DNA of 64,000 nt from Malacoraja senta (Eukaryota): NCBI GenBank assembly GCA_038087875.1, contig CM075989.1, positions 19,780,001-19,844,000 of the forward strand. The letters are read 5' to 3'. How positions within the stretch are numbered: the stretch's first letter is position 1; each line of letters starts with the position of its first letter. Positions 5,799 through 63,244 of this stretch are shown here, one piece after another. A program made the translations under genes and the position numbers. The notes below the pieces were generated by a model. The model saw only the letters and a program-made list of their open reading frames with translations. It ran no database searches and was not told where the DNA came from.

Positions 5799-6995
5799 AT
5801 GCATATCCAAATACAAGGCGTAGCTATGGGCACACGCATGGGCCCCAGCTACGCTTGCCTCTTTGTCGGGTACGTAGAACAATCCCTGTTCAATGCGTAC
5901 CAGGGCCCCATCCCCGACCTCTACCTCCGCTACATCGATGATTGTTTTGGTGCCACATCCTGCACCCACACACAACTGACTGACTTCATCCGCTTCACCA
6001 CCAACTTCCATCCGGCACTTAAATACACCTGGACCATTTCCGACACTTCCCTACCATTCCTTGACCTCACTATCTCCATCGCAGGTGATAGACTCCTTAC
6101 CGACATCCACTACAAACCTACCGACTCCCATGGCTATCTGGACTACACTTCTTCCCACCCTGCTTCCTGTAAGGACTCCATCCCCCACTCCCAATTCCTC
6201 CGTCTACGCCGCATCTGCTCCCAGGATGAGGCGTTCCACACCAGGGCATCTGAAATGTCCTCATTCTTCAGGGAACGGGGGTTCCCCTCCTCCACCATAG
6301 ATGAGGCTCGCACCAGGGTCTCTGCCATACCCCGCAACACTGCTCTCTCTCCCCATCCCCCCACTCACAACAAAGGCAGAGTCCCCCTAGTCCTCACCTT
6401 TCACCCCACCAGCCGTCACATACAACAAGTGATCCTCCGTCAGTTTCGCCACCTCCAACGTGACCCCACCACTCGCCACATCTTCCCATCTCCCCCTATG
6501 TCTGCCTTCCGCAAAGACCGCTCCCTCCGTAACTCCCTTGTCAATTCTTCCCTTCCCTCCCATACCACCCCCTCCCCTGGTACTTTCCCTTGCAACCGCA
6601 AGAGATGCAACACTTGTCCCTTCACTTCCCCCCTCCACTCCATTCCAGGACCCAAGCAGTCGTTCCAGGTGCGACAGAGGTTCACCTGCATCTCCTCCAA
6701 CCTCATCTATTGCATTCGCTGCTCTAGATGCCAGCTGATCTACATCGGTGAGACCAAGCGGAGGCTTGGCGATCGTTTCGCCGAACACCTCCGGTCGGTC
6801 CGCAATAACCAACCTGAACTCCCGGTGGCTCAGCACTTCAACTCCCCCTCCCATTCCGTATCTGACCTCTCTGTCCTGGGTCTCCTCCATGGCCACAGCG
6901 AGCAACACCGTAAATTGGAGGAAATGCACCTCATATTCCGCTTGGGCAGTCTACACCCTGGTGGCCTGAACGTTGAATTCTCCCAATTCTGCTAG
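5799..6995 (+). CDS. Penelope-like RT C-terminal half plus Cys-rich linker plus GIY-YIG endonuclease (N-truncated; the ATG comes from captured flank)
   Basis: QGVAMGTRMGPSYA and YIDD RT motifs; CNRKRCNTC linker; LIYCIRCSRCQLIYIGET...RFAEH; 398 codons without a stop. Confidence 0.9.
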   Translation: MHIQIQGVAMGTRMGPSYACLFVGYVEQSLFNAYQGPIPDLYLRYIDDCFGATSCTHTQLTDFIRFTTNFHPALKYTWTISDTSLPFLDLTISIAGDRLLTDIHYKPTDSHGYLDYTSSHPASCKDSIPHSQFLRLRRICSQDEAFHTRASEMSSFFRERGFPSSTIDEARTRVSAIPRNTALSPHPPTHNKGRVPLVLTFHPTSRHIQQVILRQFRHLQRDPTTRHIFPSPPMSAFRKDRSLRNSLVNSSLPSHTTPSPGTFPCNRKRCNTCPFTSPLHSIPGPKQSFQVRQRFTCISSNLIYCIRCSRCQLIYIGETKRRLGDRFAEHLRSVRNNQPELPVAQHFNSPSHSVSDLSVLGLLHGHSEQHRKLEEMHLIFRLGSLHPGGLNVEFSQFC

Positions 6996-7205
6996 CCCTG
7001 GCTGTCCCCTCCCCTTCATCAGCCATCTGGTTGTCTCCTCCCCTCCCCCAACCCTCGGGCTCCTCCTCCTCCTTTTCCTTTTTTCCTTTCTTCTCCCCAC
7101 CCCCTATCAGTCTGAAGAAGGGTTTCGGCCCGAAACGTTACCTATTTCCTTCGCTCCATAGATGCTGCTGCACCCGCTGAGTTTCTCCAGCATTTTTGTG
7201 TACCT
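5806..7205 (+). mobile_element. 5'-truncated Penelope-like retroelement with 3' terminal repeat
   Basis: RT/GIY-YIG ORF, pyrimidine-rich 3' UTR, terminal repeat with CTGAAGA...GAAAC core, TSD. Confidence 0.93.
7110..7141 (+). ncRNA. Minimal hammerhead-ribozyme-like motif in Penelope terminal repeat
   Basis: CTGAAGA (7112-7118), extra A, stem II GGGT-TTCG-GCCC, GAAA, palindromic ACGT stem III, GTT triplet; stem I only 2 bp. Confidence 0.6.
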
Positions 7206-7819
7206 CAGGTTTGTAGATGAATTGGCTTGGTATAAATGTAAATTGTCCCTAGTAAGTGTATGACAGTGTTAGTGGATGGGGATTGCTGGTTGGTGTGGAC
7301 TCGGTGGGCCGAAGGGCCTGTTTCCACGCTGTATCTCTAAAACTAGAAAAAAAACTAGTGTTGGTTTTGACACAAGTGAGTCTTGTATCAGTGACCTTGT
7401 GGTCACCAATGGAACCGCGCATTCAAGAGAAAAGTAAATTTAAGATTTACAATATATTTTTCTGTGTATGTGCGCAAAATTAATTAAAATCAAAATGCAG
7501 AGCTGCCCCTGTTTTTGACTGTTTAATGATGCCTTCAACTTTTCACTATAAGATAAATAGGTTACACTTCCCCATACACTATTTGTTTTGCAGAATCTTG
7601 CTCTATTGTTAGTGTAGATTGGAGAAGGGGCTCAGAGATCAACCAAGTTAATCCCAATTTCCTGGGCGTTCATTATAATGATCAAGAACATAATCTGGAT
7701 TTATTTAATTCCATAAAATTTTAAGTCGGGGCCTTTCCATTGAAAAATAAATCTGCTCTTTCAATCAGATTGGTGTTGACACTAAAATAATTGAAAGATT
7801 TGATTGCAAATTATGTATG

Positions 7820-34922: not shown

Positions 34923-35020
34923 GTACACAAAAATGCTGGAGAAACTCAGCGGGTGCAGCAGCATCTATGGAGTGAAGGAAATAGGCAACGTTTCGGGCCG
35001 AAACCCTTCTTCAGACTCTT
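34923..35020 (-). mobile_element. Penelope terminal-repeat-only insertion inside an HE1 SINE
   Basis: Near-identical to the reverse of 7109-7205; 14-bp TSD CAGGTTTGTAGGTT (34909-34922, 35021-35034). Confidence 0.85.
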
Positions 35021-35374
35021 CAGGTTTGTAGGTTAATTGGCCTCTGTAAAACATGTCTTGATGTCAATGCGTCTGCTATAAATTACTTCACTGTTAATCC
35101 CTATACCTATGAATCCAGAGCAAGCCTGCTGGAGTAGCCACACAGCTGTACCCCAGTGGTGGGAAGCACTTTCTGTTTTTGGTTGGAGAAACATGATGAG
35201 AAGCAGACTTCTTACCGCCACAATGGCCTCAAACACCAACCTGCTGTAAACCTCTCACCTCTTCCAATAATTCACTAACCATGGCAGGCTTCCTGTTAAT
35301 TATACAAGTACTTTCCCCCGCAACCCCATCCACTGATATAGATGGTGGGAAGTGATTTTCAAGCTAGTCTTTTA

Positions 35375-36245
35375 GAATCAGGTTTATTACTGTCATGTGT
35401 ACTGGACTACAGTGTGTTGCATGCCATCCCATCAGATCGGATAATACTATATATAAATATAATCAAGTCAAACTCAAGTGCAACAGGTCGAGCAAAGGGG
35501 CAGATACAGAGTGCAGAGTATAGTTCTCAGCATTGTGAGCCAACAGTTCCAGAGACAAAGTCCAATGTCCGCAATGGGGTAAAGCTAATTCGGACACTGC
35601 CCAAGCTTATGAAAGGACCGTTCAGAAGATTGATAACAGAGGGTTGTCTGGTGGTGCGCGCTTTCAAGCTTCTGTACCTTTTGAGCGATGGTAGTTGGGA
35701 GCAGAGAGAATGGCCAGGATTGGACATGCCTTTGATCTTGTTGGCTGCTTTTCTGCTGTAAGTGAAAATGGAGTCGATGATGGGAATGTGGCGCCACCTG
35801 GAGGTTAGGCCGCTTACTGGGCGAACCCTCGGCCCTAGGACTGGCAGGGTCTCGTCACATGGCTTGGGGTGTGCCCTGATATATATGTAGAACTCTGGGA
35901 GAACCCTCCCCAGTCGTGTGTGAGCTGTTCGCTGTTTAACACAATAAAGATCACTTTGTTTCACAACACGTGTCTCGCTATAGGAAATCTGATGTGTGTG
36001 ATGGGCTGGGGTACATCTACAACTCTTGGGCACAGCTGCTTCCAAATGAAACTGCGATACAACCCACCATGCTTGCAATCGTGCATCTGTGGGAGTTTGT
36101 AATGCAGAAGTTTATCTGTAGAGATTGGAGTTGTGCCAAGTTTCATCAGTCTCCTGAGTAGAGGCATTGGTGTGCCTTCTTGGCTGTAGCATCAGTGCGG
36201 TTGGTCCAAGACAAATCATTGGTACTATTCCCGCCAAGGAACCTG
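35375..36245 (-). mobile_element. Decayed Rex1/Babar 3' fragments (again at about 42500-43370)
   Basis: SNPGHSLCSQLPSLKRYRSLKARTTR resembles the Rex1 C-terminus. Confidence 0.6.
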
Positions 36246-38209
36246 GAGGTTCATATTCATAAGTTCTTGGAGCAGAATTAGGCCGTTTGGCCCATCAAGT
36301 CTACACCATTCAATCACGGCTGATTCATGTTTTATAAGGTCATAAGGAACAGGAGTACAATTAGGCCATTCGGCCCTTCAGGTGCATTCCGCCATTCAAT
36401 CATGGCTGATCTATCCCTCCTAACCCAATTCTCTCGCCTTCCTATAATCCCTAACACCCTTACTCATTAAAATTTTCTGTCAATCTCCGCCTTAAAAATA
36501 TCCATTGACTTGGCCTCCGCAGCCATCTGTGGCAATGAATTCCACAGATTCACCACCATGGTCTCCACCTTTTGGATTGTGAGGTCAGAGCAATAGGTGG
36601 CAATCCTGCAGCAGCTCCTGGTGCAAGAGTGATACTCCATGCCGCGTTTTGCTGCAAGCCAAGAGTCTTCCTGTCAGCTACTTGTGTACATATTCGTAAC
36701 TCTTGTTCATAGATTGGGGGGAAGGGGGAAGCAATACCAAGGACTTGGCCTTAAGGCATGTTATTCCTTTCATACATTACCATTTCATAATAAGGCAGCT
36801 TGAGGTGTGTTGCAGGAATTTAAATGTGACCACTTTTCAGGCAGTTGAAAAATATGTAACAGACCAACATGCGAACACATGTCTTGAACGTGTCTAATGA
36901 TTGTTGAAGCCAAGCTGCTCATGCCGCCACCACCCTCTCCGTCTCACAGCCCAGAGGCAACAATATTTTGAACAGTTAGAGAGATGTACCATCCAAATTC
37001 TTGCATGTGTTTCTTCGCTAATTGCAGTGCTGTCACCGCTCACCTCGTTCAGGCAAGAAAGGCTTGCTGTTCCCCTCCTCTCGACTAGAGTGCAATTATC
37101 AGCAGAAGAAATGATGCAAGCTTGCACTTGTAGTGTCGGGAATGTTCATGATGCAGGCTCGGAGGCCTCCGAGACTCCAGTACATATCCAGGCTGGTTAG
37201 CAGATCAAGCCTGTGTCCCTGGCAAAACATAAAGCGCTGGAAGAACTCGGCGGGTCAGGCAGCATCTGTGGAGGGAATGGATAGACAATGTTTCATCGGC
37301 TGGGCCCACCTTCAGATTGATTGGAGTATGGGGGGTGGGGGGTGGGGAGAGTTTTGGAAAAGATAGGCGGGGGGGGGGGGGGGGGGGGGGGGTGGCACCC
37401 GCAGGAAACCCGCGCGGACACAAGGAGAACGAGAACTAATGAGATTTAATGCCTCACAGTGCCAGGGACCCAGGTTCAATCTGCACTCTGAGTGGAGTTC
37501 ACACGTTCTTCCTGCGACTGCGTGGGTTTCCTCCGGGTTCTCCGGTTTCCTCCCACATCCCAAAGACGTGCGGGTTTGTGGGTTAATTGCCCTCTGTAAA
37601 TTGTGTAGGGAGTGGATGAGAAAGTGGGATAACATAGAACTGGAGTGGACTCGAACAAAACTGATGCCCGTCTGACATGAGCACGATCTACATCAGGGGG
37701 TGTGGACACAGTGGGACATTGTAGTCACTGAGTTTCACTCCTGTATTGACGTTTAATGACATGACACGGAAATAAACAGGACATGATTTAATTGCTCACT
37801 GCATGACTTAAACAGCAACTCTTTTCAAACGACCATGGTAAATGTTCCCTTCCCAAGCCTCATGAGTTTACTTTGCACGCAGTCCTACACGAACTGGTAA
37901 ATCACTGAACCATCAAGAAAATGTTTAATTTGAGCTCTGGAGACAGAGCTGGCTTTAAGCCAGCGCCAGAGCAACAATAAAACTCTGTAAGCAGACCGCA
38001 AGTCAGCTGCTCTCCAGCGACGTTATAGATCACATATAGCAATGATCAGTTTGAAGCAGGGTCTCGACCCGAAATGTCACCCATTTCCTTCTCTCCAGAG
38101 ATGCTGCCTGTCCCGCTGAGTTACTCCAGCATTTTATGTCCTTCACAATCTCTGTGCTCTGTGGAAACCAACTATGATTTTTTTTAAATCGGTTCGTTTT
38201 CATTTTCAT

Positions 38210-39990
38210 AACACCTCCACCCACCCTGCCTCTTGCAAAGACGCCATCCCCTGCTCTCAATTTGCCCGTCCCTGCCACATCTGCTCCCAAGGAGAGGCTT
38301 TTCATTCTTGGACATCCGAGATGTCCTCATGCTTTAGTAAATGTGGTTTCTCCTCCCCTGCTGTCATAGACGAATCTCCGTCTCCTCTTTGTCCCGTAGT
38401 TCTGCTCTCACTCCTCCCCCCAGATGGAACTAGAATACACATCCCCTGGTCCTCACCCCACCAGCCTCCGCATCCAACACATCATTGTGTGGCGTGGGAG
38501 TGGCGGCGCCTACGGCAGCGGCTCAACTACAGTCGTCCGTCTTTTAAAAATTTTTTTGTCTTGTTAAATGTATGTCTTGAGTTTAGTTTTTATTATTTTT
38601 TAGCTGTGTATATGTGGGGGGTGGAGGGGGGGATGTTGGGGAAACCGTTAATCTCTTCCCTGTACGGGGACCCGACTTTTTCCCTGTCGGATCTCCGATG
38701 TCGTTGGGCCTAACATTGTGGAGCCGGCGGCGGCCTCCGGGCGGGACCAACCTGAGGGCTCCAGTCGCGGAGCCTGGGACCTGACATCACGGAGCTGGCC
38801 GGCTTCGGAGCGGGGAGAGCTGTGGTGGCGCTCGGCTGCGACCCGACTTTGGAGTTTCGGAAGCTCCGGCTGCGGGCCTGGTGGGGAGGAACATCGGGAG
38901 CTCCAGGTCCCGGGTGGGAGACGGCTTTTCGGAGATCCCACAACGGCAACTTCTCCCGTTGGAATCGCGAGGTTTGGAGGACACGGAGCGAGGCCTAACA
39001 TCGCCCGGCGCGGGTTGGCGGCCACGGTACTTACCATCGTCCGCCGGGGGCTCTAACATCGGAGCCCCAGTTCGCCTAGACGCTGCAGTTGGACTGCGGG
39101 TTGGACTGCTTGAACCGCGGGGTTTGAAGGACACGGAGCCGGGGCCTGGCATCGCCCGGCGTGGCTAAATGGCCACAGGACTTACCATCGTCCGCCGGGG
39201 GCTTTAACACTGGAGCCCCAGTTCGCCTAGACGCTGCAGTTGGACTGCTGGACCGCGGGTGAAGAATAAAGGGAAGAGATAAGACTTTGCCTTCCATCAC
39301 AGTGAGGAGGTGTTGGAGACTCACTGTGATGGATGTTTATGTAAATTGTGTTAAGTGTGGGTCTTGGGGTTTTTTGTAATGTAAAAAACCCTGTAATAAT
39401 GATATTTTGTTCAAGCCTAGGTTTGAATGACAATAAATAGCATTCTATTCTATTCTATTCTATCATTCTCCGACGTTTCCGCCACCTTCAACGTGATCCC
39501 ACCACCGGTCAGATCTTCCCATCCGCACCCCTTTCCACCTTCCGCAGAGACCGCTCCCACTGCAACTCCTTGGTTCACTCTTCCCTCCCTACCCAAACCA
39601 CCCCTCCCCAGGTACTTTCCCCTGCAACCGCAGGACATGCAACACCTGTCCCTATGCCCCTCCCTCACATCCATCCAGGGACCCCAGCTGTCCTTCCAGG
39701 TGAGACTGAGGTTTGCGTGCACCTCCTCTAACCTCATCGTCGATACCAAGCGTAGACTTGGCAACCACTTCACCAAACACTCGCGCTCGGTCTGCCAACA
39801 CCTACTGGATCTCCTGGTTGCTAACCATTTTAGCTCCTCTTCCCATTCTCATACTGACATTTCTGTCCTGGGCCTCCTCCATTATCAAAGTGAGGACATA
39901 CTCAAACTGGAGGAACATCATCTCATATTCCACTTGAGTAGCTTATAACTCAACAGTATGAACATTGAATTCTCCAGTTTCAGATAACTA
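38210..39990 (+). pseudogene. Decayed Penelope-like RT/GIY-YIG fragment split by 38487-39461 (again at about 45335-47115)
   Basis: HPASCKDAIPCSQF and SFQVRLRFACTSSNL...KLEEHHLIFHLSSL align to ORF 5799-6995 with frameshifts. Confidence 0.85.
38487..39461 (+). mobile_element. GC-rich non-autonomous retroposon with ~150-bp-period internal repeat (again at about 45610-46586)
   Basis: 6-bp TSD ATCATT; tail TTGAATGACAATAAA plus (ATTCT)n; repeat units near 38979 and 39129. Confidence 0.75.
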
Positions 39991-40890
39991 CCCATACCTC
40001 CCTCCTCCCCCGTACTTCTTCCCACCACCTTTCTTACCCCTCCCGACCTCTCTCCCTGAGAGGGGGAAATTTAACAGGAAATTCAGGGGCAATTTTTTCC
40101 ACTCAGAGGGTAGTCCACATCTAGGATGGTAGATTCAAACTATAGGATCTATACAATAGAAGGAAACTATAGAAGCAGAAGCAATTGTGGCTTTTGAAAT
40201 GTTTGGGCAGGTGTAGGATATGAAGGGTTTAGAGGCCTAGGGCCAAATGCAGGCAAATGTGACCAACTCAGTTTGCAGACTTGGACAAGATGGGCCGAGG
40301 GGCCAGTTCCGTGCTGTATAGTTCTCAAACCACCTCTGGAGCACCTGCACTGCATCCACCTATTGCTTGCCAGGATTTGTTCTGCCCCTCCTCTCTTCCA
40401 GTTTTCTCCTCCCGACACTATCAGTCTAAAGAAGGGTTCCGACCCGACACTTATCCATGTCATCCATGTTCTCCAGAGAAGCTGAAGAGAGACACAAAAT
40501 GCTGGAGTAATAATGGAGTCCCTGACTCTCAGTCGGAAGAAGGGTCTCGACCTGAAAAGTCACCTGTTCCTTTTCTCCGGAGATGCTGCCTGACCCGTTG
40601 AGTTACTCCAGCTCTCTGTGCCTTTCTCAGTACTAAAACAGATGAGGCGACTCTGAATGATTTTTTTTTTTTAAACAGCGCATAGAGAGGGGAGATTTGC
40701 CTCACACCCACACTCTAACCATAAAGAAGCAACATGCTAATACAGCAAGAGAGAAAGAGCAAGAAAAATATTTCTATTGTACCATTCATGACTTCAAAAT
40801 TCCAAAAGAACGTCAAAGTCAATGAAGCTATTTCTAAAGACCATTCTTCTTTGTTATGGAGGCAAAATGTATCTTTTGCTTGACGAACAA

Positions 40891-41184
40891 TGGGCGGCGC
40901 AGCGGTAGAGTTGCTGCCTTACAGCGTCAGAGACCCGGGTTCCATCCCGACTACGGGTGCTGTCTGTGCGGAGTTTGTACGTTCTCCCTGTAACCTGCGT
41001 GGGTTTTCTCCGAGATCTTCGGTTTCCTCCCACACTCCAAAGACGTGCAGGTTTGTAGGCTTGGTATAAATGTAAATTGTCCCTAGTGCGTGTAGGATAA
41101 TGTTAATGTGCAGGGATCGCTGGTCGGTGCAGACTCGGTGGGCCGAAGGGCCTGTTTCCACGCTGTTTATCACTAAACTAAACA
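40891..41184 (+). mobile_element. HE1-type SINE (again at about 50880-51172)
   Basis: Head, body, tail. Confidence 0.85.
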
Positions 41185-41336
41185 ACACAATCCCATAAGC
41201 AGCTATGATAAATGCCCTTGTAATCTGTGTATTGGTGGGTTTGGTTGTGAGATAAATACGAGCTCGAGTACCATGACAACAGTCTTGTTCTGGGGATTTT
41301 TTGTGTCAAGTTGAATCAATAAAGGAGGCCTGTGAC

Positions 41337-41428
41337 TAGGGTTGCCAACTGTCCCGTGTTAGCCGGGACATCCCGTATATTTCGCTAAATTGGTTTGTCC
41401 CACACAGGACCGCCCTTGTCCCGTATTT
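41337..41428 (+). mobile_element. hAT-like DNA transposon terminal fragment (again at 51325-51416)
   Basis: TAGGGTTGCCA terminus with subterminal GTCCCG/CGGGAC motifs; no partner end seen. Confidence 0.55.
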
Positions 41429-41440
41429 AACTGCTACTAG

Positions 41441-41540
41441 CAGCTTCTCCTCAACTTTCGGTAGGGTTACGTTCCGATAAACCCCTTTGTAAATCGAAAA
41501 TATCGTAAGTCGAAAATACATTTAATACACCGAACCTGCC
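41441..41540 (+). mobile_element. Tigger/pogo-like terminal fragment (again at 51429-51528)
   Basis: GGGTTACGTTCCGATAAACCC...GAAAATATCGTAAGTCGAAAATACATTTAATACACC resembles the MER47/Tigger5 end as recalled. Confidence 0.55.
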
Positions 41541-41809
41541 ATCACCAGAATGTTCAGGGTTGGACCGACAGGCGCTTGTGGGTTTTCATTCTCCGGGTTA
41601 GTTCCCCCCCCCCACTTCTCCCTCTCTCTCCTCTTCAGTCCTCTGCCTCTGGGAGTGTTTTTAATTTCCACGTTTTAATTATGAAATCTCTTTGGCGTCT
41701 CTGAACGTACGTTCAGTCTAAAGAAGGGTCTCGATTCCATTCCTTCTCTCCAGAGATGCTGCCTGTCCCGCTGAGTTACTGAGTTACTCCAGCCTTTCGT
41801 GTCTATCAT

Positions 41810-42130
41810 TGTGTGCAAACGTTGCTTGTCCAAGGCCAACAGCATTATAAAAGACCCCACACGTCTCCATCATGGACTGTTCACTCTGCTGCCCTCGGGC
41901 AAAAGGTATCGCAGTATAAGGAGCAGAACGGCCAGGTTTTGCAACAGCTTCTTCCCCCGAGCCATCAGACTCTTGAATTCCATCTAATGTGCCGCTACTA
42001 GTATCTATTTTATCCTTTTATCTATTTTATCCTTTTGTTATTTTATGTTGCACGGTGAGACAGATGCAATGAAATTTCGTTCAGACTTGCATTTATTGGT
42101 GTATTTTTGAATGACAATAAAGTCTTTGAT
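41810..42130 (+). mobile_element. Rex1/Babar 3' fragment (again at about 51800-52120)
   Basis: IIKDPTRLHHGLFTLLPSGKRYRSIRSRTARFCNSFFPRAIRLLN; (TTGA)n tail. Confidence 0.8.
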
Positions 42131-42270
42131 TGATTAAACCAGCATCTGCAGTTCCTTCCGATACAGTTAAGGAATAAGTTCTGTAGTTTTGGTTGAAAAC
42201 AAAAAGGCAAAAACTGAGTGTACAGCCCTGATTCTGCTTTTGAGGACTTTACTGTGGACTCATTTTGGGG

Positions 42271-42470
42271 NNNNNNNNNNNNNNNNNNNNNNNNNNNNNN
42301 NNNNNNNNNNNNNNNNNNNNNNNNNNNNNNNNNNNNNNNNNNNNNNNNNNNNNNNNNNNNNNNNNNNNNNNNNNNNNNNNNNNNNNNNNNNNNNNNNNNN
42401 NNNNNNNNNNNNNNNNNNNNNNNNNNNNNNNNNNNNNNNNNNNNNNNNNNNNNNNNNNNNNNNNNNNNNN
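42271..42470. other. Assembly gap (200 N)
   Basis: Run of exactly 200 n. Confidence 1.
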
Positions 42471-45400
42471 GTGGGAAGTGATTTTCAAGCTAGTCTTTTA
42501 GAATCAGGTTTATTACTGTCATGTGTACTGGACTACAGTGTGTTGCATGCCATCCCATCAGATCGGATAATACTATATATAAATATAATCAAGTCAAACT
42601 CAAGTGCAACAGGTCGAGCAAAGGGGCAGATACAGAGTGCAGAGTATAGTTCTCAGCATTGTGAGCCAACAGTTCCAGAGACAAAGTCCAATGTCCGCAA
42701 TGGGGTAAAGCTAATTCGGACACTGCCCAAGCTTATGAAAGGACCGTTCAGAAGATTGATAACAGAGGGGGGTCTGGTGGTGCGCGCTTTCAAGCTTCTG
42801 TACCTTTTGAGCGATGGTAGTTGGGAGCAGAGAGAATGGCCGGGATTGGACATGCCTTTGATCTTGTTGGCTGCTTTTCTGCTGTAAGTGAAAATGGAGT
42901 CGATGATGGGAATGTGGCGCCACCTGGAGGTTAGGCCGCTTACTGGGCGAACCCTCGGCCCTAGGACTGGCAGGGTCTCGTCACATGGCTTGGGGTGTGC
43001 CCTGATATATATGTAGAACTCTGGGAGAACCCTCCCCAGTCGTGTGTGAGCTGTTCGCTGTTTAACACAATAAAGATCACTTTGTTTCACAACACGTGTC
43101 TCGCTATAGGAAATCTGATGTGTGTGATGGGCTGGGGTACATCTACAACTCTTGGGCACAGCTGCTTCCAAATGAAACTGCGATACAACCCACCATGCTT
43201 GCAATCGTGCATCTGTGGGAGTTTGTAATGCAGAAGTTTATCTGTAGAGATTGGAGTTGTGCCAAGTTTCATCAGTCTCCTGAGTAGAGGCATTGGTGTG
43301 CCTTCTTGGCTGTAGCATCAGTGCGGTTGGTCCAAGACAAATCATTGGTACTATTCCCGCCAAGGAACCTGGAGGTTCATGTTCATAAGTTCTTGGAGCA
43401 GAATTAGGCCGTTTGGCCCATCAAGTCTACACCATTCAATCACGGCTGATTCATGTTTTATAAGGTCATAAGGAACAGGAGTACAATTAGGCCATTCGGC
43501 CCTTCAGGTGCATTCCGCCATTCAATCATGGCTGATCTATCCCTCCTAACCCAATTCTCTCGCCTTCCTATAATCCCTAACACCCTTACTCATTAAAATT
43601 TTCTGTCAATCTCCGCCTTAAAAATATCCATTGACTTGGCCTCCGCAGCCATCTGTGGCAATGAATTCCACAGATTCACCACCATGGTCTCCACCTTTTG
43701 GATTGTGAGGTCAGAGCAATGGGTGGCAATCCTGCAGCAGCTCCTGGTGCGAGAGTGATACTCCATGCCGCGTTTTGCTGCAAGCCAAGAGTCTTCCTGT
43801 CAGCTACTTGTGTACATATTCGTAACTCTTGTTCATAGATTGGGGGGGAAGGGGGAAGCAATACCAAGGACTTGGCCTTAAGGCATGTTATTCCTTTCAT
43901 ACATTACCATTTCATAATAAGGCAGCTTGAGGTGTGTTGCAGGAATTTAAATGTGACCACTTTTCAGGCAGTTGAAAAATATGTAACAGACCAACATGCG
44001 AACACATGTCTTGAACGTGTCTAATGATTGTTGAAGCCAAGCTGCTCATGCCGCCACCACCCTCTCCGTCTCACAGCCCAGAGGCAACAATATTTTGAAC
44101 AGTTAGAGAGATGTACCATCCAAATTCTTGCATGTGTTTCTTCGCTAATTGCAGTGCTGTCACCGCTCACCTCGTTCAGGCAAGAAAGGCTTGCTGTTCC
44201 CCTCCTCTCGACTAGAGTGCAATTATCAGCAGAAGAAATGATGCAAGCTTGCACTTGTAGTGTCGGGAATGTTCATGATGCAGGCTCGGAGGCCTCCGAG
44301 ACTCCAGTACATATCCAGGCTGGTTAGCAGATCAAGCCTGTGTCCCTGGCAAAACATAAAGCGCTGGAAGAACTCGGCGGGTCAGGCAGCATCTGTGGAG
44401 GGAATGGATAGACAATGTTTCATCGGCTGGGGCCCACCTTCAGATTGATTGGAGTATGGGGGGTGGGGGGTGGGGAGAGTTTTGGAAAAGATAGGCGGGG
44501 GGGGGGGGGGGGGGTGGCACCCGCAGGAAACCCGCGCGGACACAAGGAGAACGAGAACTAATGAGATTTAATGCCTCACAGTGCCAGGGACCCAGGTTCA
44601 ATCTGCACTCTGAGTGGAGTTCACACGTTCTTCCTGCGACTGCGTGGGTTTCCTCCGGGTTCTCCGGTTTCCTCCCACATCCCAAAGACGTGCGGGTTTG
44701 TGGGTTAATTGCCCTCTGTAAATTGTGTAGGGAGTGGATGAGAAAGTGGGATAACATAGAACTGGAGTGGACTCGAACAAAACTGATGCCCGTCTGACAT
44801 GAGCACGATCTACATCAGGGGGTGTGGACACAGTGGGACATTGTAGTCACTGAGTTTCACTCCTGTATTGACGTTTAATGACATGACACGGAAATAAACA
44901 GGACATGATTTAATTGCTCACTGCATGACTTAAACAGCAACTCTTTTCAAACGACCATGGTAAATGTTCCCTTCCCAAGCCTCATGAGTTTACTTTGCAC
45001 GCAGTCCTACACGAACTGGTAAATCACTGAACCATCAAGAAAATGTTTAATTTGAGCTCTGGAGACAGAGCTGGCTTTAAGCCAGCGCCAGAGCAACAAT
45101 AAAACTCTGTAAGCAGACCGCAAGTCAGCTGCTCTCCAGCGACGTTATAGATCACATATAGCAATGATCAGTTTGAAGCAGGGTCTCGACCCGAAATGTC
45201 ACCCATTTCCTTCTCTCCAGAGATGCTGCCTGTCCCGCTGAGTTACTCCAGCATTTTATGTCCTTCACAATCTCTGTGCTCTGTGGAAACCAACTATGAT
45301 TTTTTTTAAATCGGTTTCGTTTTCATTTTCATAACACCTCCACCCACCCTGCCTCTTGCAAAGACGCCATCCCCTGCTCTCAATTTGCCCGTCCCTGCCA

Positions 45401-47274
45401 CATCTGCTCCCAAGGAGAGGCTTTTCATTCTTGGACATCCGAGATGTCCTCATGCTTTAGTAAATGTGGTTTCTCCTCCCCTGCTGTCATAGACGAATCT
45501 CCGTCTCCTCTTTGTCCCGTAGTTCTGCTCTCACTCCTCCCCCCAGATGGAACTAGAATACACATCCCCTGGTCCTCACCCCACCAGCCTCCGCATCCAA
45601 CACATCATTGTGTGGCGTGGGAGTGGCGGCGCCTAACGGCAGCGGCTCAACTACAGTCGTCCGTCTTTTAAAAATTTTTTTGTCTTGTTAAATGTATGTC
45701 TTGAGTTTAGTTTTTATTATTTTTTAGCTGTGTATATGTGGGGGGTGGAGGGGGGGATGTTGGGGAAACCGTTAATCTCTTCCCTGTACGGGGACACGAC
45801 TTTTTCCCTGTCGGATCTCCGATGTCGTTGGGCCTAACATTGTGGAGCCGGCGGCGGCCTCCGGGCGGGACCAACCTGAGGGCTCCAGTCGCGGAGCCTG
45901 GGACCTGACATCACGGAGCTGGCCGGCTTCGGAGCGGGGAGAGCTGTGGTGGCGCTCGGCTGCGACCCGACTTTGGAGTTTCGGAAGCTCCGGCTGCGGG
46001 CCCGGTGGGGAGGAACATCGGGAGCTCCAGGTCCCGGGTGGGAGACGGCTTTTCGGAGATCCCACAACGGCAACTTCTCCCGTTGGAATCGCGAGGTTTG
46101 GAGGACACGGAGCGAGGCCTAACATCGCCCGGCGCGGGTTGGCGGCCACGGTACTTACCATCGTCCACCGGGGGCTCTAACATCGGAGCCCCAGTTCGCC
46201 TAGACGCTGCAGTTGGACTGCGGGTTGGACTGCTTGAACCGCGGGGTTTGAAGGACACGGAGCCGGGGCCTGGCATCGCCCGGCGTGGCTAAATGGCCAC
46301 ATGACTTACCATCGTCCGCCGGGGGCTTTAACACTGGAGCCCCAGTTCGCCTAGACGCTGCAGTTGGACTGCTGGACCACGGGTGAAGAATAAAGGGAAG
46401 AGATAAGACTTTGCCTTCCATCACAGTGAGGAGGTGTTGGAGACTCACTGTGATGGATGTTTATGTAAATTGTGTTAAGTGTGGGTCTTGGGGTTTTTTG
46501 TAATGTAAAAAACCCTGTAATAATGATATTTTGTTCAAGCCTAGGTTTGAATGACAATAAATAGCATTCTATTCTATTCTATTCTATCATTCTCCGACGT
46601 TTCCGCCACCTTCAACGTGATCCCACCACCGGTCAGATCTTCCCATCCGCACCCCTTTCCACCTTCCGCAGAGACCGCTCCCACTGCAACTCCTTGGTTC
46701 ACTCTTCCCTCCCTACCCAAACCACCCCCTCCCCAGGTACTTTCCCCTGCAACCGCAGGACATGCAACACCTGTCCCTATGCCCCTCCCTCACATCCATC
46801 CAGGGACCCCAGCTGTCCTTCCAGGTGAGACTGAGGTTTGCGTGCACCTCCTCTAACCTCATCGTCGATACCAAGCGTAGACTTGGCAACCACTTCACCA
46901 AACACTCGCGCTCGGTCTGCCAACACCTACTGGATCTCCTGGTTGCTAACCATTTTAGCTCCTCTTCCCATTCTCATACTGACATTTCTGTCCTGGGCCT
47001 CCTCCATTATCAAAGTGAGGACATACTCAAACTGGAGGAACATCATCTCATATTCCACTTGAGTAGCTTATAACTCAACAGTATGAACATTGAATTCTCC
47101 AGTTTCAGATAACTACCCATACCTCCCTCCTCCCCCGTACTTCTTCCCACCACCTTTCTTACCCCTCCCGACCTCTCTCCCCTGAGAGGGCGAAATTTAA
47201 GAGGAAATTCAGGGGCAATTTTTTCCACTCAGAGGGTAGTCCACATCTAGGATGGTAGATTCAAACTATAGGAT

Positions 47275-49792
47275 TTTTTTAAATTTTTTTTTATTTTTTT
47301 TATTATTTTTATTAGAAGTACGGTAAATTACAGTAATACACAACACTTATATCTTAATACATTTTTTATACCGCTTCATTTTTTTGAGCTTTAAGAGAAA
47401 GATAGAAGTAAGAAAAGTAAAGAAAGTGTGCAAGAGTCGTGAGGTGCAAGAGAGTGTTGTGAAAAGAAAGCCCCTTAGAAAAGAAGTTAGAGAAGGAAGT
47501 AAAGTAAGAAAGTAGATCCTAGAAAAGAAAGAAAAAGAAAGTAGGAACAATCGCAGAAAGGGAACCACCGACCAAGTCTGTTTTTATTGTTTTACCTCCC
47601 ATTACCAGGTCCTGATACCATTTCTTTATTTATTTTTTAAATTACTATTGCACCTCATGCTTGTAATAGGTCCAAAAACGTAGACCACGTCTTTTGGAAT
47701 TGGTCTGCTTTCCCTGCTAAGAGGAATCTCATCTCTTCCAGATGTAATGTTTCCAACATATTTGATGTCCACATTTTTATTGTTGGTGTGGGCGCATTTT
47801 TCCAGAATTTAAGTATGAGCCTTTTTCCCATTATTAGCCCGTAATTGAATAAGTTCTTCTGATACACGTTTAATTCAGGGATACCTTCCGATATTCCAAA
47901 AATGATCCATTCTGGTTTTGGTACCAGTTTTATTTTAATTAATTTTGAGAAAATATCAAATATTTCATACCAAAAATTTTGGATTTTTGTACAAAAAACA
48001 AAAGAATGCGCTATGGTAGCTTCTTGACATAGACATTTATCACAGATTGGTGAAACATTAGGAAAGATTTTATTTAATTTAGTTTTTGAATAATATAGTC
48101 TATGTAATGTTTTGAATTGGATGAGCGTATGTCGTACGTTGATCGAACATTTATGCACCTGTAGTAAGTGGTTATCCCAGCTCTCTTTTGAAATTTTTAT
48201 AGCTAATTCTTGTTCCCAGTCTCTTCTAATTCCTTCTGTTGTGGGTATTTCTATGTTTAAAATGATATTATATAAGTACGATATTAGATTAGCTGATTCC
48301 GCCTTTGTCTTCATTGCTTCATCTAGTAAGTCGGAAGGCATATTATGATAGTCTTTTGTGTATTTTTTCAGGTAATCACGAATTTGTAGATATTTAAAAT
48401 ATTGATTATTTTTCAGATTATATTTCAGTTGTAGTTGTTGAAATGATAGTAATTTTCCCAATTCATACAGATCTTCGAGCGTTTTGATTCCCATTCTTTC
48501 CCATTGTATAAATGATTTGTCTATGGTTGAAGGTTTAAACGATGGGTTATTAACTATTGGTATTGAGAGAGATAGGTTTCTTAATTTTAGATTCTGTTTT
48601 ATTTGTTTCCATGTTCTAATTGTGCTATTTATAATTGGGTTTTTATTATAATTTTTATTATTCAAATTTATTGGAGAGAGAATAATCGCTCCTATATTAC
48701 TCGGGGAACAGTCCCCTTTTCCCATTATAATCCAGTCCACCTGCTGGGCAGAATTGTCCAGCAGGTGAATCATATTTTTAATATTTACTGCCCATTTATA
48801 ATACATAAAGTTAGGGAGCGCGAGACCCCCCAACTCTTTTCGTTTATTACGGTGTGCTCTTTGTATTCTATGGGATTTATAATCCCATATAAAATTTGTA
48901 ATGTCTGAGTCCAATTTTTTGAAAAACTTTTTTGGGAGATATATAGGTATTGATTGAAATAGGTATAGGATTTGTGGTAAGAAAATCATTTTTATAGCAT
49001 TTATTCTGCCTATTAAGGACATCGGAAGTGTTTTCCAGAATTTAATCATATTATTTAGTTTCTTAAGTAAGGGATTATAATTGGCTTTAAACATATCCTG
49101 GTAATTTCTAGTAATTTCAATTCCCAAATATTTGAATTTTTCTGTAGCTATTTTAAAGGGGAATTTCCTGAGGTGTGTTGAGTCTTTTGGTTTTATCGAC
49201 ATAATTTCACTTTTGTTCCAGTTTATTCTATATCCTAAAAAGGATCCAAAGTCCTCAATTAAATTTAATATATTTGGTATACTAATTTGTGGTTTTGTGA
49301 TGTACAATAGTACGTCATCGGCATATAAGGATATTTTGTTATTTGAATATTTTGTATTATAACCGTAAATATCCATGTGTGTTCTTATTTTTTCAGCAAG
49401 GGGTTCAATTACTAAAGCAAATAACAGCGGTGATAATGAACATCCTTGTCTATTGCCCCTTGATAGTTCAAATTTCGAGGATAATATATTATTAGTTAGT
49501 ATTCTAGCCGTAGGTTTGTTATATAATAGTTTTATCCATGCAATGAAGTTCTCTCCCAATTGGAATTTTTGCAATACTTTAATCATATAGTCCCATTCTA
49601 CTTGATCAAATGCTTTTTCTGCGTCCAATGAGATGATAGATAGCTCTTGGTCCTGAGATTTATGCGAGTGCATTATGTTAAGCAAACGTCTCAAATTATT
49701 AAATGAATGTCTCTTAGGTATAAATCCTGTTTGATCCTCATTTATTAGTCTACTAACATACCTGCTTAGTCTACTGGCTAAGGTTTTCGCTA
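47275..49792 (-). mobile_element. 5'-truncated L1-clade LINE, young
   Basis: A-rich tail (T-run on plus from 47275), 3' UTR, uninterrupted ORF2; absent from copy A. Confidence 0.95.
47655..49790 (-). CDS. L1 ORF2 fragment: RT plus C-terminal CCHC; frame open to the truncation point, no true start
   Basis: DQTGFIPKR, SLDAEKAFD, GNRQGCSLSPLLF, YADD, CDKCLCQEATIAHSFVFC. Confidence 0.92.
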   Translation of the reverse strand, partial: AKTLASRLSRYVSRLINEDQTGFIPKRHSFNNLRRLLNIMHSHKSQDQELSIISLDAEKAFDQVEWDYMIKVLQKFQLGENFIAWIKLLYNKPTARILTNNILSSKFELSRGNRQGCSLSPLLFALVIEPLAEKIRTHMDIYGYNTKYSNNKISLYADDVLLYITKPQISIPNILNLIEDFGSFLGYRINWNKSEIMSIKPKDSTHLRKFPFKIATEKFKYLGIEITRNYQDMFKANYNPLLKKLNNMIKFWKTLPMSLIGRINAIKMIFLPQILYLFQSIPIYLPKKFFKKLDSDITNFIWDYKSHRIQRAHRNKRKELGGLALPNFMYYKWAVNIKNMIHLLDNSAQQVDWIIMGKGDCSPSNIGAIILSPINLNNKNYNKNPIINSTIRTWKQIKQNLKLRNLSLSIPIVNNPSFKPSTIDKSFIQWERMGIKTLEDLYELGKLLSFQQLQLKYNLKNNQYFKYLQIRDYLKKYTKDYHNMPSDLLDEAMKTKAESANLISYLYNIILNIEIPTTEGIRRDWEQELAIKISKESWDNHLLQVHKCSINVRHTLIQFKTLHRLYYSKTKLNKIFPNVSPICDKCLCQEATIAHSFVFCTKIQNFWYEIFDIFSKLIKIKLVPKPEWIIFGISEGIPELNVYQKNLFNYGLIMGKRLILKFWKNAPTPTIKMWTSNMLETLHLEEMRFLLAGKADQFQKTWSTFLDLLQA

Positions 49793-52570
49793 GATCTCCT
49801 GGTTGCTAACCATTTTAGCTCCTCTTCCCATTCTCATACTGACATTTCTGTCCTGGGCCTCCTCCATTATCAAAGTGAGGACATACTCAAACTGGAGGAA
49901 CATCATCTCATATTCCACTTGAGTAGCTTATAACTCAACAGTATGAACATTGAATTCTCCAGTTTCAGATAACTACCCATACCTCCCTCCTCCCCCGTAC
50001 TTCTTCCCACCACCTTTCTTACCCCTCCCGACCTCTCTCCCCTGAGAGGGGGAAATTTAACAGGAAATTCAGGGGCAATTTTTTCCACTCAGAGGGTAGT
50101 CCACATCTAGGATGGTAGATTCAAACTATAGGATCTATACAATAGAAGGAAACTATAGAAGCAGAAGCAATTGTGGCTTTTGAAATGTTTGGGCAGGTGT
50201 AGGATATGAAGGGTTTAGAGGCCTAGGGGCCAAATGCAGGCAAATGTGACCAACTCAGTTTGCAGACTTGGACAAGATGGGCCGAGGGGCCAGTTCCGTG
50301 CTGTATAGTTCTCAAACCACCTCTGGAGCACCTGCACTGCATCCACCTATTGCTTGCCAGGATTTGTTCTGCCCCTCCTCTCTTCCAGTTTTCTCCTCCC
50401 GACACTATCAGTCTAAAGAAGGGTTCCGACCCGACACTTATCCATGTCATCCATGTTCTCCAGAGAAGCTGAAGAGAGACACAAAATGCTGGAGTAATAA
50501 TGGAGTCCCTGACTCTCAGTCGGAAGAAGGGTCTCGACCTGAAAAGTCACCTGTTCCTTTTCTCCAGAGATGCTGCCTGACCCGTTGAGTTACTCCAGCT
50601 CTCTGTGCCTTTCTCAGTACTAAAACAGATGAGGCGACTCTGAATGATTTTTTTTTTTTAAACAGCGCATAGAGAGGGGAGATTTGCCTCACACCCACAC
50701 TCTAACCATAAAGAAGCAACATGCTAATACAGCAAGAGAGAAAGAGCAAGAAAAATATTTCTATTGTACCATTCATGACTTCAAAATTCCAAAAGAACGT
50801 CAAAGTCAATGAAGCTATTTCTAAAGACCATTCTTCTTTGTTATGGAGGCAAAATGTAATCTTTTGCTTGACGAACAATGGGCGGCGCAGCGGTAGAGTT
50901 GCTGCCTTACAGCGTCAGAGACCCGGGTTCCATCCCGACTACGGGTGCTGTCTGTGCGGAGTTTGTACGTTCTCCCTGTAACCTGCGTGGGTTTTCTCCG
51001 AGATCTTCGGTTTCCTCCCACACTCCAAAGACGTGCAGGTTTGTAGGCTTGGTATAAATGTAAATTGTCCCTAGTGCGTGTAGGATAATGTTAATGTGCA
51101 GGGATCGCTGGTCGGTGCAGACTCGGTGGGCCGAAGGGCCTGTTTCCACGCTGTTTATCACTAAACTAAACGACACAATCCCATAAGCAGCTATGATAAA
51201 TGCCCTTGTAATCTGTGTATTGGTGGGTTTGGTTGTGAGATAAATACGAGCTCGAGTACCATGACAACAGTCTTGTTCTGGGGATTTTTTGTGTCAAGTT
51301 GAATCAATAAAGGAGGCCTGTGACTAGGGTTGCCAACTGTCCCGTGTTAGCCGGGACATCCCGTATATTTCGCTAAATTGGTTTGTCCCACACAGGACCG
51401 CCCTTGTCCCGTATTTAACTGCTACTAGCAGCTTCTCCTCAACTTTCGGTAGGGTTACGTTCCGATAAACCCCTTTGTAAATCGAAAATATCGTAAGTCG
51501 AAAATACATTTAATACACCGAACCTGCCATCACCAGAATGTTCAGGGTTGGACCGACAGGCGCTTGTGGGTTTTCATTCTCCGGGTTAGTTCCCCCCCCC
51601 CCACTTCTCCCTCTCTCTCCTCTTCAGTCCTCTGCCTCTGGGAGTGTTTTTAATTTCCACGTTTTAATTATGAAATCTCTTTGGCGTCTCTGAACGTACG
51701 TTCAGTCTAAAGAAGGGTCTCGATTCCATTCCTTCTCTCCAGAGATGCTGCCTGTCCCGCTGAGTTACTGAGTTACTCCAGCTTTTCGTGTCTATCATTG
51801 TGTGCAAACGTTGCTTGTCCAAGGCCAACAGCATTATAAAAGACCCCACACGTCTCCATCATGGACTGTTCACTCTGCTGCCCTCGGGCAAAAGGTATCG
51901 CAGTATAAGGAGCAGAACGGCCAGGTTTTGCAACAGCTTCTTCCCCCGAGCCATCAGACTCTTGAATTCCATCTAATGTGCCGCTACTAGTATCTATTTT
52001 ATCCTTTTATCTATTTTATCCTTTTGTTATTTTATGTTGCACGGTGAGACAGATGCAATGAAATTTCGTTCAGACTTGCATTTATTGGTGTATTTTTGAA
52101 TGACAATAAAGTCTTTGATTGATTAAACCAGCATCTGCAGTTCCTTCCGATACAGTTAAGGAATAAGTTCTGTAGTTTTGGTTGAAAACAAAAAGGCAAA
52201 AACTGAGTGTACGGCCCTGATTCTGCTTTTGAGGACTTTACTGTGGACTCATTTTGGGGGTGGAGATGGGCATTGTTACAGAGGAGGAAATAGCTGAAAT
52301 GCATGGTCCAATCTCCAAAATCTGGAGTCAAAGATTCCCGGAGACTGGGTGCGTCATTCTTTCCATTGCTCAGCTGCAGGGAAATTCTGCTTTTTGACTG
52401 TTATGTGTGGACACCCAGGCTGACATGTTAGAGACGAGATAGGGATGAGATAGGGACGGGTGTTGTTCACCATTGGAAACTGACGTCACAAATTCCGTGA
52501 AGTTAATCTTGAGCTGAGTGACCCTGAAGTGGATGTTTAGGTAGGAACTGCAGATACTGGTTCAAACTGA

Positions 52571-54044: not shown

Positions 54045-54590
54045 ACACTGGATTGTCCAAGGGGATAATCTGAGTTGTCCAAGTGAGTGGCTTTGGGTTG
54101 TCCAAGGGAATAGAAACTGGGTGGTCCAGGGGGGATATCAACTAGGTTGTCCGGGGGGGATAGTCACCAGGTTGCCCAAGGGAGAAGCATTGGGTTGTCC
54201 AGGTGAGTGTCATTAGGTTGCCCAAGTTGGATAGTCACTGGAGAAGGGTTGAGAAGGGTCTGAAGAAGGGTTTCGGCCCGAAACGTTGCCTATTTCCTTC
54301 ACTCCATAGATGCTGCTGCACCCGCTGAGTTTCTCCAGCACTTTTGTCTACCCTGGATAGTCACTGGGTTGTCCAAGGGATAGGTTTGAGTTGGCCAGAT
54401 AGATCGGCATTGTGTTGTCCAGGAGGAGTCATTAAGTTGTCTAAGGAGATAGGAACGGGATTGCTCAATGGCAGTCATTGGGTTGTCCAAGGGGGAATAT
54501 ATCCACATTCCGTTATCCAGGGCGGGGGAGAGAGAGACAGGGCTGGGTTGCCCAAGGGGAATAGTGGTTGGGTTGTCTAGGATGATAGTC
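54045..54590. repeat. Degenerate ~24-bp minisatellite (GGGTTGTCCAAGGGGGATAGTCACT-like)
   Basis: Recurring GGTTGTCCA/GGTTGCCCA units. Confidence 0.75.
54242..54353 (+). mobile_element. Penelope terminal-repeat-only insertion with hammerhead-like core
   Basis: 14-bp TSD TGGATAGTCACTGG (54228-54241, 54354-54367); 5' filler AGAAGGGTTGAGAAGGG. Confidence 0.85.
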
Positions 54591-60574: not shown

Positions 60575-61594
60575 TAGTGGGTTACAGGTGAAGGGTCAAT
60601 ACGATGAGAACATCATTTCTTCCCTTTAAAATTCACCTTTTATATTATAAACAAAAATAAAACAGAATCCTTAAAACAAACAAATCAAATTCCTCCCAAG
60701 ACCTATGGGGCGTAAATTCAAAGTGTTAGTGTGACTGTGGTACCTTGTTTCCCCCCGCAGATGAAGGCTTTTATTTGCTGGTTGCACGGGTTATTTGAGT
60801 ATGTGCATGAAATGGGATGAATCATTTGCAAAGTGTGCTGATTCCAGCATAAACAAAGTTTGGTTTGATTCAAGGTCAGTCATTTCCTTAATGGTGTTTG
60901 GTAAAAGGCAGTGTCTAGTTTAAATGACTGACTTATTCAGTTGAACTACATTTATTGTTGTAATAGGCCAGGTGTGAACCTTTACCCTTATTAACTTAAA
61001 AAAAAAATCTATTCATAGTCCAATTACTAAATATGAAAACTTCTAACACTTATCAAAAACATAATCAGAGTGCTTTGTAACCTGAACGGCAACTCAATGG
61101 GTAGTGGGTAAATGGAATGAGCTGCTGGAGGAGGTAGTTGATGCAGGTAGAATAATAACATTTAAAAGGCACTTGGACGGATACATGGATATGAGAGGTT
61201 TAGAGGCATAAGGGCCAAACGCGAGCAAATGGGACTAACTTAGATGAGGTATCTTGGTCAGCATGGATGACTTGGCCTGTTATAGACAATAGACAATAAG
61301 TGCAGGAGTGGGTCATTCAGCCCCTCGAGCCAGCACCGCCATTCAATGTGATCATGGCTGATCATCCCCAATCAGTACCCCGTTCCTGCCTTCTCCCCAT
61401 ATCCCCTGACTCCACTATCTTTAAGAGCCCTATCTAGTTCTCTCTTGAAAGTATCCAGAGAACCTGCCTCCACCGCCCTATGAGGCAGAGAATTCCACAG
61501 ACTCACAACTGTTACTGGGTTGTATGACTCTATGACTAGTATATGTTGATATCTCTAACTTTTAGTATAGACTTTAATAAACGGTGTTCCTAGG

Positions 61595-63020
61595 TCAAGT
61601 CAAGTCAAGTGAGTTTATTGTCATGTGTCCCTGATAGGACAATGAAATTCTTGCTTTTCTTCAGCACAACAGAACATAGTAGGCATTGACTACAAGGCAT
61701 TCCATAGATATATACACACATGAATCAATATACTGATAAAGTGCAAATAACAGTTAATTGGCTAATAAAGTTCAGAGTTTTGTCCGAGCCAGGTTTAATA
61801 GCCTGATGGCTGTGAGGAAGTAGCTATTCCTGAACCTGGTCGTTGCAGTCTTCAGGCTCCTGTACCTTCTACCTGAACGTAGTAGGGAGATGAGTGTGTG
61901 GCCAGGATGGTGTGGGTCCTTGATGATACTGCCAGTCTTTTTGAGGCAGCAACTGTGATAGATCCCCTCGATGGAAGGGAGGTCGGAGCCGATGATGAAC
62001 TGGGCAGTGTTTACTACTTTTTGTAGTCTTTTCCTCTCAAGTTGCCGAACCAAGCCACGATGCAACCGGTCAGCATGCTCTCTACTGTGCACCTGTAGAA
62101 GTTCGAGAGAGTCCTCCTTGACAAACCGACTCTCCGTAATCTTCTCAGGAAGTAGAGGTGCTGATGTGCTTTCTTAATAATGGCATCAGTGTTCTCGGAC
62201 CAGGAAAGATCTTCAGAGATGTGCACGCCCAGGAATTTGAAACTCTTGACCCTTTCAACCATCGACCCGTTGATATAAACGGGAGTGTGGGTCCCCATCC
62301 TACTCCTTCCAAAGTCCACGATCAGTTCCTTGGTTTTGCTGGTGTTGAGGGCCAGGTTATTGTGCTGGCACCATATGGACAGTTGCTCGATCTCTCTTCT
62401 ATACTCTGACTCATCCCCATCAGTGATACGTCCCACAACAGTGGTGTCGTCAGCGAACTTGATGATGGAGTTCGCACTATGTCCGGCTACGCAATCATGA
62501 GTATAGAGTGAGTACAGCAGGGGGCTGAGCACGCAGCCTTGAGGTGCTCCCGTGCTGATTGTTATCGAGTCTGACACATTTCCACCAATACGAACAAACT
62601 GTGGTCTGAGAGTGAGGAAGTCGAGGATCCAATTGCAGAAGGATGCGCAGAGACCCAGTTCTGTGAGTTTGGTAACCAGCTTGGAGGGGATGATTGTATT
62701 AAATGCCGAGCTGTAATCGATGAATAACAGCCTGACATATGAGTTTTTGTTGTCCAAGTGGTCCAGAGCGGAGATCGCATCCACCGTTGATCTGTTGTGG
62801 CGGTAAGCGAACTGCAGTGGGTCCAGGTTTTTGTCGAGGTAGGAGTTGATCTGCGTCATGATCAACCTCTCAAAGCACTTCATCACCACAGACGTTAGTG
62901 CCACAGGTCGATAGTCATTGAGGCACGTCACCTTACTCTTCTTGGGCACTGGTATAATTGATGCCCTTTTGAAGCAGGTGGGAACCTCAGACCTCAGAAG
63001 TGAGAGGTTGAAAATGTCCG
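61595..63020 (-). mobile_element. 5'-truncated Rex1/Babar LINE, RT frameshifted near 62035
   Basis: [62 protein letters not shown]; (CTTGA)n tail. Confidence 0.93.
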
Positions 63021-63244
63021 TAGGTTGAAAAAGGTCATAGGTTTTTTCAAAGCCACCAAACGCATCTACAAACCTTGTGCACACCTGTCTATCCGTTGAG
63101 TCATTTTATTTTTCTGCATCATAGTTGGCATTGACGAGTTGGGCCGAAGGGCCTGTTTCTGCGCTCTGTGACTATAAAAGTAAAGTAAGGCAGCATTAAA
63201 AGACAATATTTTACTCACTCTCCATAAAGTGCTGCGGACATTGA

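Follow-up and report, generated by a model that had tools for sequence, protein, structure and literature searches.

Within the window, by which we mean the whole 64-kb stretch that was analyzed, a 2,518-bp insert (47275-49792) carries a 5'-truncated, fish-type L1 element on the minus strand. Read in the direction of the element, the insert consists of an ORF2 remnant comprising the reverse transcriptase (RT) and the C-terminal part (47655-49792), a 3' UTR that separates the ORF stop from the tail (47314-47654) and attains high depth in related sequencing runs, and an A-rich tail that contains an AATAAA signal and is interrupted by a T (47275-47313). The open reading frame (47655-49805, minus strand) takes its first four residues from target DNA and matches the Pfam profile RVT_1 over positions 22-205 of 205 (E=6.8e-35); the truncation point lies inside the RT, directly after the DQKI motif of relatives. 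An L1-type RT in ORF2 and an A-rich tail that follows AATAAA assign the element to the L1 clade. Its protein shares about 50% identity with fish L1 ORF2 proteins, 66% over 329 aa with a protein of Leucoraja erinacea and 88% over 60% of the length with an unnamed protein, so that the host looks like a cartilaginous fish. The full-length relatives possess an endonuclease domain (PF03372, present in several of the top homologs); endonuclease and ORF1 are missing from the insert, having been removed by the 5' truncation. The first-pass annotation had described an ORF2 without stops, which is accurate for the 716 open codons, but these form a remnant that lacks endonuclease and ORF1 rather than a complete ORF2. 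Self-comparison found one copy of this L1 family in the window, and no relative of the locus was found among pattern hits in viral contigs (0/25) or metagenome contigs (0/401).

Other retroelement sequences are present in the window. A 363-aa open frame at 62014-63105 on the minus strand matches the full RVT_1 profile followed by ALKBH8_N and belongs to a second, different LINE family. Short repeats with 94-98% identity (7109-7203, 34923-35021 and 54253-54352, as well as 4574-4678 and 61290-61394) suggest recent SINE or LINE-tail activity.

The L1 is flanked by direct repeats of 342 bp. Self-alignment on the plus strand placed the left copy, which lies 3' of the L1, at 46933-47274 and the right copy, which lies 5' of it, at 49793-50134. 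The two copies mismatch at only two positions, 47191 (C in the left copy, G in the right) and 47201 (G in the left, C in the right). Both the repeat itself and the departure of the left copy from the right copy and from the empty site at these two letters had been noted on first inspection, and our alignments bear them out. On one side the block adjoins the poly(A) and on the other the 5' truncation. Besides a pyrimidine-rich stretch, it contains the old 3' end of a Penelope-like element and a piece of a different dispersed repeat, and it shows 69-87% identity to other dispersed-repeat copies in the window, mainly to the 3' end of the Penelope-like element. By this composition, the duplicated block is old host repeat DNA and not part of the L1. 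Its origin as a terminal repeat of the LTR or Penelope type was rejected on the same grounds, and 3' transduction was rejected because the block lies downstream of the A-rich tail. Directly to the left of the target block, at 46086-46375 (38962-39251 in the copy described next), we observed two GC-rich 140-bp units with ~85% identity, spaced 150 bp apart.

A version of the region without the L1 is present in the same window. Copy A (35345-42270) and copy B (42471-52259), both on the plus strand, are separated by a scaffold gap of 200 N (42271-42470), which is the sole N run of the window. In the self-alignment, 35345-40148 matches 42471-47274 at 99.5% and 39805-42270 matches 49790-52259 at 99.6%. 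In copy A, a single block is found at 39808-40148 (341 bp, plus strand); the first-pass annotation had correctly recognized an empty site with a single block and no L1, although its coordinates, about 39809-40149, were off by one base. Compared with the right copy, the block of copy A has no substitution and one homopolymer indel, with one C fewer than in both filled copies. No base separates the gap from the end of copy A or from the start of copy B.

This arrangement has the appearance of false heterotype duplications, for which PMC9516828 describes near-identical alleles that stand in tandem and are split by an assembly gap, and lists a gap between the copies as a hallmark; here, the gap likewise lies between A and B, and both are flush with it. 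Leaving the block aside, we counted 15 substitutions between the copies in 6,585 bp (0.23%), mostly transitions, plus homopolymer indels. In each of nine homopolymers, copy A is short of one base, a pattern expected of a contig end with weak support. The assembled sequence has the two copies in tandem, and one could take copy A for a true paralog in a 6.9-kb segmental duplication, with the L1 fixed in the other paralog. We consider this very unlikely: a tandem duplication would show this pattern only if the gap happened to coincide exactly with its junction, whereas overlapping contig ends produce it automatically, the divergence of 0.23% is at the allelic level, and the homopolymer losses of copy A resemble a poorly supported contig end. 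Copy A is thus most likely the second haplotype of the animal, represented by a contig end that overlaps copy B. It follows that the sequenced animal is most likely heterozygous for the L1 insertion and that the 6.9-kb tandem duplication in the assembly is most likely false, with both haplotypes laid across the 200-N gap. The presence/absence polymorphism proposed in the first-pass annotation is supported by these data, and more strongly than it had been argued, with copy A as the second haplotype across the scaffold gap. Relative to copy A, the left flank of the L1 carries 11 substitutions over 4,463 bp (0.25%) and the right flank 4 over 2,122 bp (0.19%); because these rates are similar, nothing points to a change of haplotype in contig B at the L1.

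The two substitutions between the block copies fit haplotype-level divergence. At 0.23%, 0.78 substitutions would be expected in 342 bp, and two or more are unremarkable (P(>=2)=0.18); their spacing of 10 bp is mildly odd (P about 0.06). The letters of the left copy at 47191 and 47201 are derived or erroneous. For 47191 this follows from public runs X18 and X1, in which the G agrees with the right copy and the empty allele. In run X19, a contig of depth 4.68 covers 47191 with no G listed; it may carry the left-copy letter but is too weak to use.

We next consider the junctions. The hexamer GGATCT occurs on the plus strand at the block start (39807-39812; 46932-46937 in copy B) and again at the block end (40145-40150; 50131-50136 in copy B), there spanning the putative first-strand nick, and in a wider view the two ends match at 9 of 11 bases. 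In a chance test, a common spanning hexamer was found for 490 of 39,697 random breakpoint pairs (1.2%) and for 1,098 of 81,600 local ones (1.3%). Since the motif was noticed after the fact, the coincidence at both block ends is only a lead and not proof of a mechanistic role. If microhomology was involved, the block could have arisen as a tandem duplication of a 339-bp unit via GGATCT, with the L1 entering at the junction in the same event or later and generating a 3-bp TSD (GAT). Such an origin would account for the contact of both breakpoints with an identical hexamer and for the extended end match, and the arithmetic agrees (342 = 339 + 3). However, the supporting chance test was made after the motif was seen, a later insertion would have to strike the junction to within a few bases, and a doubled allele without the L1 is not seen in the window. 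We therefore regard this account as unlikely.

The same sequence context raises the question of whether the cuts were directed by sequence. In the empty allele, the first nick would lie at GGAT/CT and not at TTTT/AA, which is the human L1 consensus and may not be the preference of this family, and the priming end offers one T only for pairing with the poly(A). The palindrome GATC is present at both junctions, and an endonuclease or host nuclease that cuts 5'-GAT^C-3' on both strands ~340 bp apart would leave a TSD resembling a restriction fragment. Were the G at 49793 part of the L1, in a Leu codon (leucine being the consensus residue in aligned relatives), both nicks would read GAT^C; breakpoints at the same 4-bp palindrome are expected at ~0.5% by chance. 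Yet this is a single case, and the family continuation in X19 encodes Ile, not Leu, at that codon, so that we judge such double nicking to be highly improbable. At the 5' junction, three X19 contigs run on into L1 sequence with a first letter unlike that of the target, and there is no strict microhomology for that variant.

GATC is also a restriction site used in proximity-ligation libraries. Its presence at both junctions could thus point to an assembly or library artefact, in which a chimeric read or a misjoin would have added the second 342-bp copy to an allele whose real TSD is short. To evaluate support for the junctions, four of 23 listed public runs, all available as contigs, were compared over 47104-49963; none of the 23 contains the whole stretch, the best share of its words in any run being 0.69. 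Among the 32 contig pieces listed from the four runs (51,828 more exist, and 47271-47320 was excluded), none bridges 47274/47275 or 49792/49793, and it is solely the assembly that would place both junctions on one molecule. This outcome, together with the homopolymer errors nearby in the assembly, is compatible with an artefact. On the other hand, no GATC or GATCGATC ligation join to a restriction end of the L1 is seen at either junction: the GATC of the family continuation in X19 sits 9 nt beyond the 5' junction, and within the L1 seven GATC sites are intact. A restriction-ligation chimera thus fits poorly and was rejected. In addition, the block copies differ by two substitutions, both flanks resemble haplotype B, and more than 4 kb separate the structure from the only gap of the window. 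An artefact of whichever kind appears decidedly unlikely to us. In X18, we observed a joint linking 48259 and 49845 with GATC between its sides; this run may come from a proximity-ligation library whose contigs break at GATC, which would limit its use for these junctions.

The L1 family is very abundant in related runs. In the four runs compared, L1 depth is thousands of times block depth, and in X18 the summed depth over the L1 is ~1e5-6e5 versus 35.9 for the block contig, neither ratio being a copy number. With a family this abundant, one could envisage unequal crossing-over between two same-strand L1 insertions located 342 bp apart on homologous chromosomes, the product of which would be an identical succession of block, L1 and block. 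This route requires two insertions within 342 bp as well as both alleles in one animal, and neither parental allele is in evidence here; we hold it to be exceedingly improbable.

Compared with family contigs, the L1 has at least 34 differences, and 32 of those listed fall in the ORF (19 synonymous, 13 not). Most of the listed differences are common to a minority of family copies and therefore mark a subfamily. Among the 34 listed, at least four are private to this copy when X18 and X19 are each judged at the 97% level, where about 2.9 would be expected if the insertion were as old as the haplotype split. The open frame is weak evidence of youth because, after 10 random substitutions, a frame would still be free of stops with a chance of 0.54, and after 20 with a chance of 0.29. 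On an evolutionary scale the insertion is recent, but it need not be new. Regarding the suggestion that the L1 stems from a recently active family, the copy number of the family is very high in related runs; the open ORF adds little.

How unusual a TSD of 342 bp is can be gauged from published insertions. TSD lengths of L1-clade elements peak at 13-15 bp whether the host is human, cow, opossum or zebrafish (a figure cited in PMC4245944), and polymorphic insertions in humans mostly carry 10-20 bp (PMC12350158). The present insertion resembles canonical ones in its RT family, 3' UTR, A-rich tail and 5' truncation, but its TSD is about 25 times longer. It departs from canonical target-primed reverse transcription (TPRT) both in this length (342 bp versus about 10-20 bp) and in a first nick that is not TTTT/AA-like, measured against the human consensus. 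Long TSDs are known from cultured cells: in HeLa cells, TSDs exceed 100 bp in up to 10% of L1 events, and in NER-deficient cells the median TSD is 1,495 bp (PMC5223499), while one of 25 inserts of zebrafish ZfL2-2 in wild-type DT40 cells had a TSD of 1,228 bp (PMC2666801). Those insertions likewise consist of a 5'-truncated, poly(A)-tailed LINE with a target duplication of more than 100 bp, and 342 bp falls within their range of 5 bp to 5.3 kb. In contrast to them, the insertion described here is natural, probably inherited and heterozygous, and found in a cartilaginous-fish-like genome; its priming site is not TTTT/AA, and a hexamer is common to both ends. A further parallel is provided by L1-mediated tandem duplications, of which megabase examples were described in tumours (PMC7058536) and small ones, bridged by L1, were treated as large TSDs from break-induced replication (10.1101/2024.12.14.628481). 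An L1 bridges the duplication junction there as well, and strand invasion or break-induced replication has been proposed; those duplications, from tumours and L1-induced clones, are somatic and extend from 1-10 kb up to 22.6 Mb, as opposed to 342 bp here. Our literature search, which included chondrichthyan L1 elements but covered an incomplete set of papers and main texts only, found no report of a natural, inherited long TSD in a cartilaginous fish, which is weak evidence of absence. The available portions of PMC10249811, PMC13321356 and PMC13174262 hold nothing on long TSDs. Overall, the locus probably represents a real-looking, natural and probably heterozygous long-TSD L1 insertion of a known but rare class, whose empty allele was exposed by a false duplication in the assembly.

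The block consists of target DNA, is single in the empty allele and adjoins both ends of the insert, as predicted for a LINE insertion with a long TSD. From this anatomy we infer a TPRT origin, and we consider it likely that the 5' end was resolved at a distance of 342 bp. Strand invasion, break-induced synthesis or a second nick far from the first could have brought this about. According to this working model, an L1 of a fish-type family with many copies would have entered an old repeat by TPRT, priming on the plus strand at a 3' end ...TAGGAT, which is non-canonical with respect to TTTT/AA. Reverse transcription would then have halted inside the RT region, and the 5' end would have been joined 342 bp off instead of at the usual offset of 13-15 bp, so that the intervening host DNA was copied twice. 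This joining may have occurred by repair synthesis, in which the free end invaded a strand or started break-induced replication, or alternatively by a distant second-strand nick. Finally, the assembler would have broken at the 2.86-kb bubble and set both haplotypes side by side across the gap. The first-pass annotation had proposed a long TSD formed by one of these two routes. The geometry of block, poly(A) and 5' truncation fits the long TSD, but both routes would leave the same product, and the sequence cannot choose between them. The model leaves unexplained why GGATCT occurs at both block ends (1.2-1.3% by chance) and why the two substitutions lie only 10 bp apart.

A second candidate for local copying was found elsewhere in the window. 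A 5'-truncated Penelope-like element (~5805-7206, plus strand) is inserted in a SINE-like repeat and is flanked by an exact 14-bp TSD (5623-5636 and 7207-7220); its frame at 5742-6995 is open and RT-like, with a weak GIY-YIG match (E=4e-4). At its 5' junction, a 169-bp segment (5636-5804) is a copy of 5110-5278 with one mismatch (99.4%), the source lying 357 bp upstream. This segment looks like a locally templated insertion at the 5' junction, and if so, repair synthesis of this kind occurs in this genome.

How LINEs cut the second strand and join their 5' end is still the part of integration that is understood least. Cell lines and tumours are the source of the long TSDs cited above. A natural case beside its pre-insertion allele gives the exact breakpoints. 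The locus would also illustrate how a heterozygous insertion can make an assembly contain a 6.9-kb tandem duplication that is not real. The mechanism is not settled by a single locus, but the very high copy number of the family would permit a survey of how frequent long TSDs are in a germline with working repair. The 342-bp L1 duplication with GGATCT at both ends and the 169-bp copy at the 5' junction of the Penelope-like element make two candidate cases in a single 64-kb window. It is conceivable, though we would not expect it, that retroelements in the germline of this fish frequently complete their 5' ends through invasion of host DNA close by, at short common motifs, and that duplications or templated copies of hundreds of bases are a regular outcome. 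If this were true, retroelement insertion would be a source of small copy-number variants.
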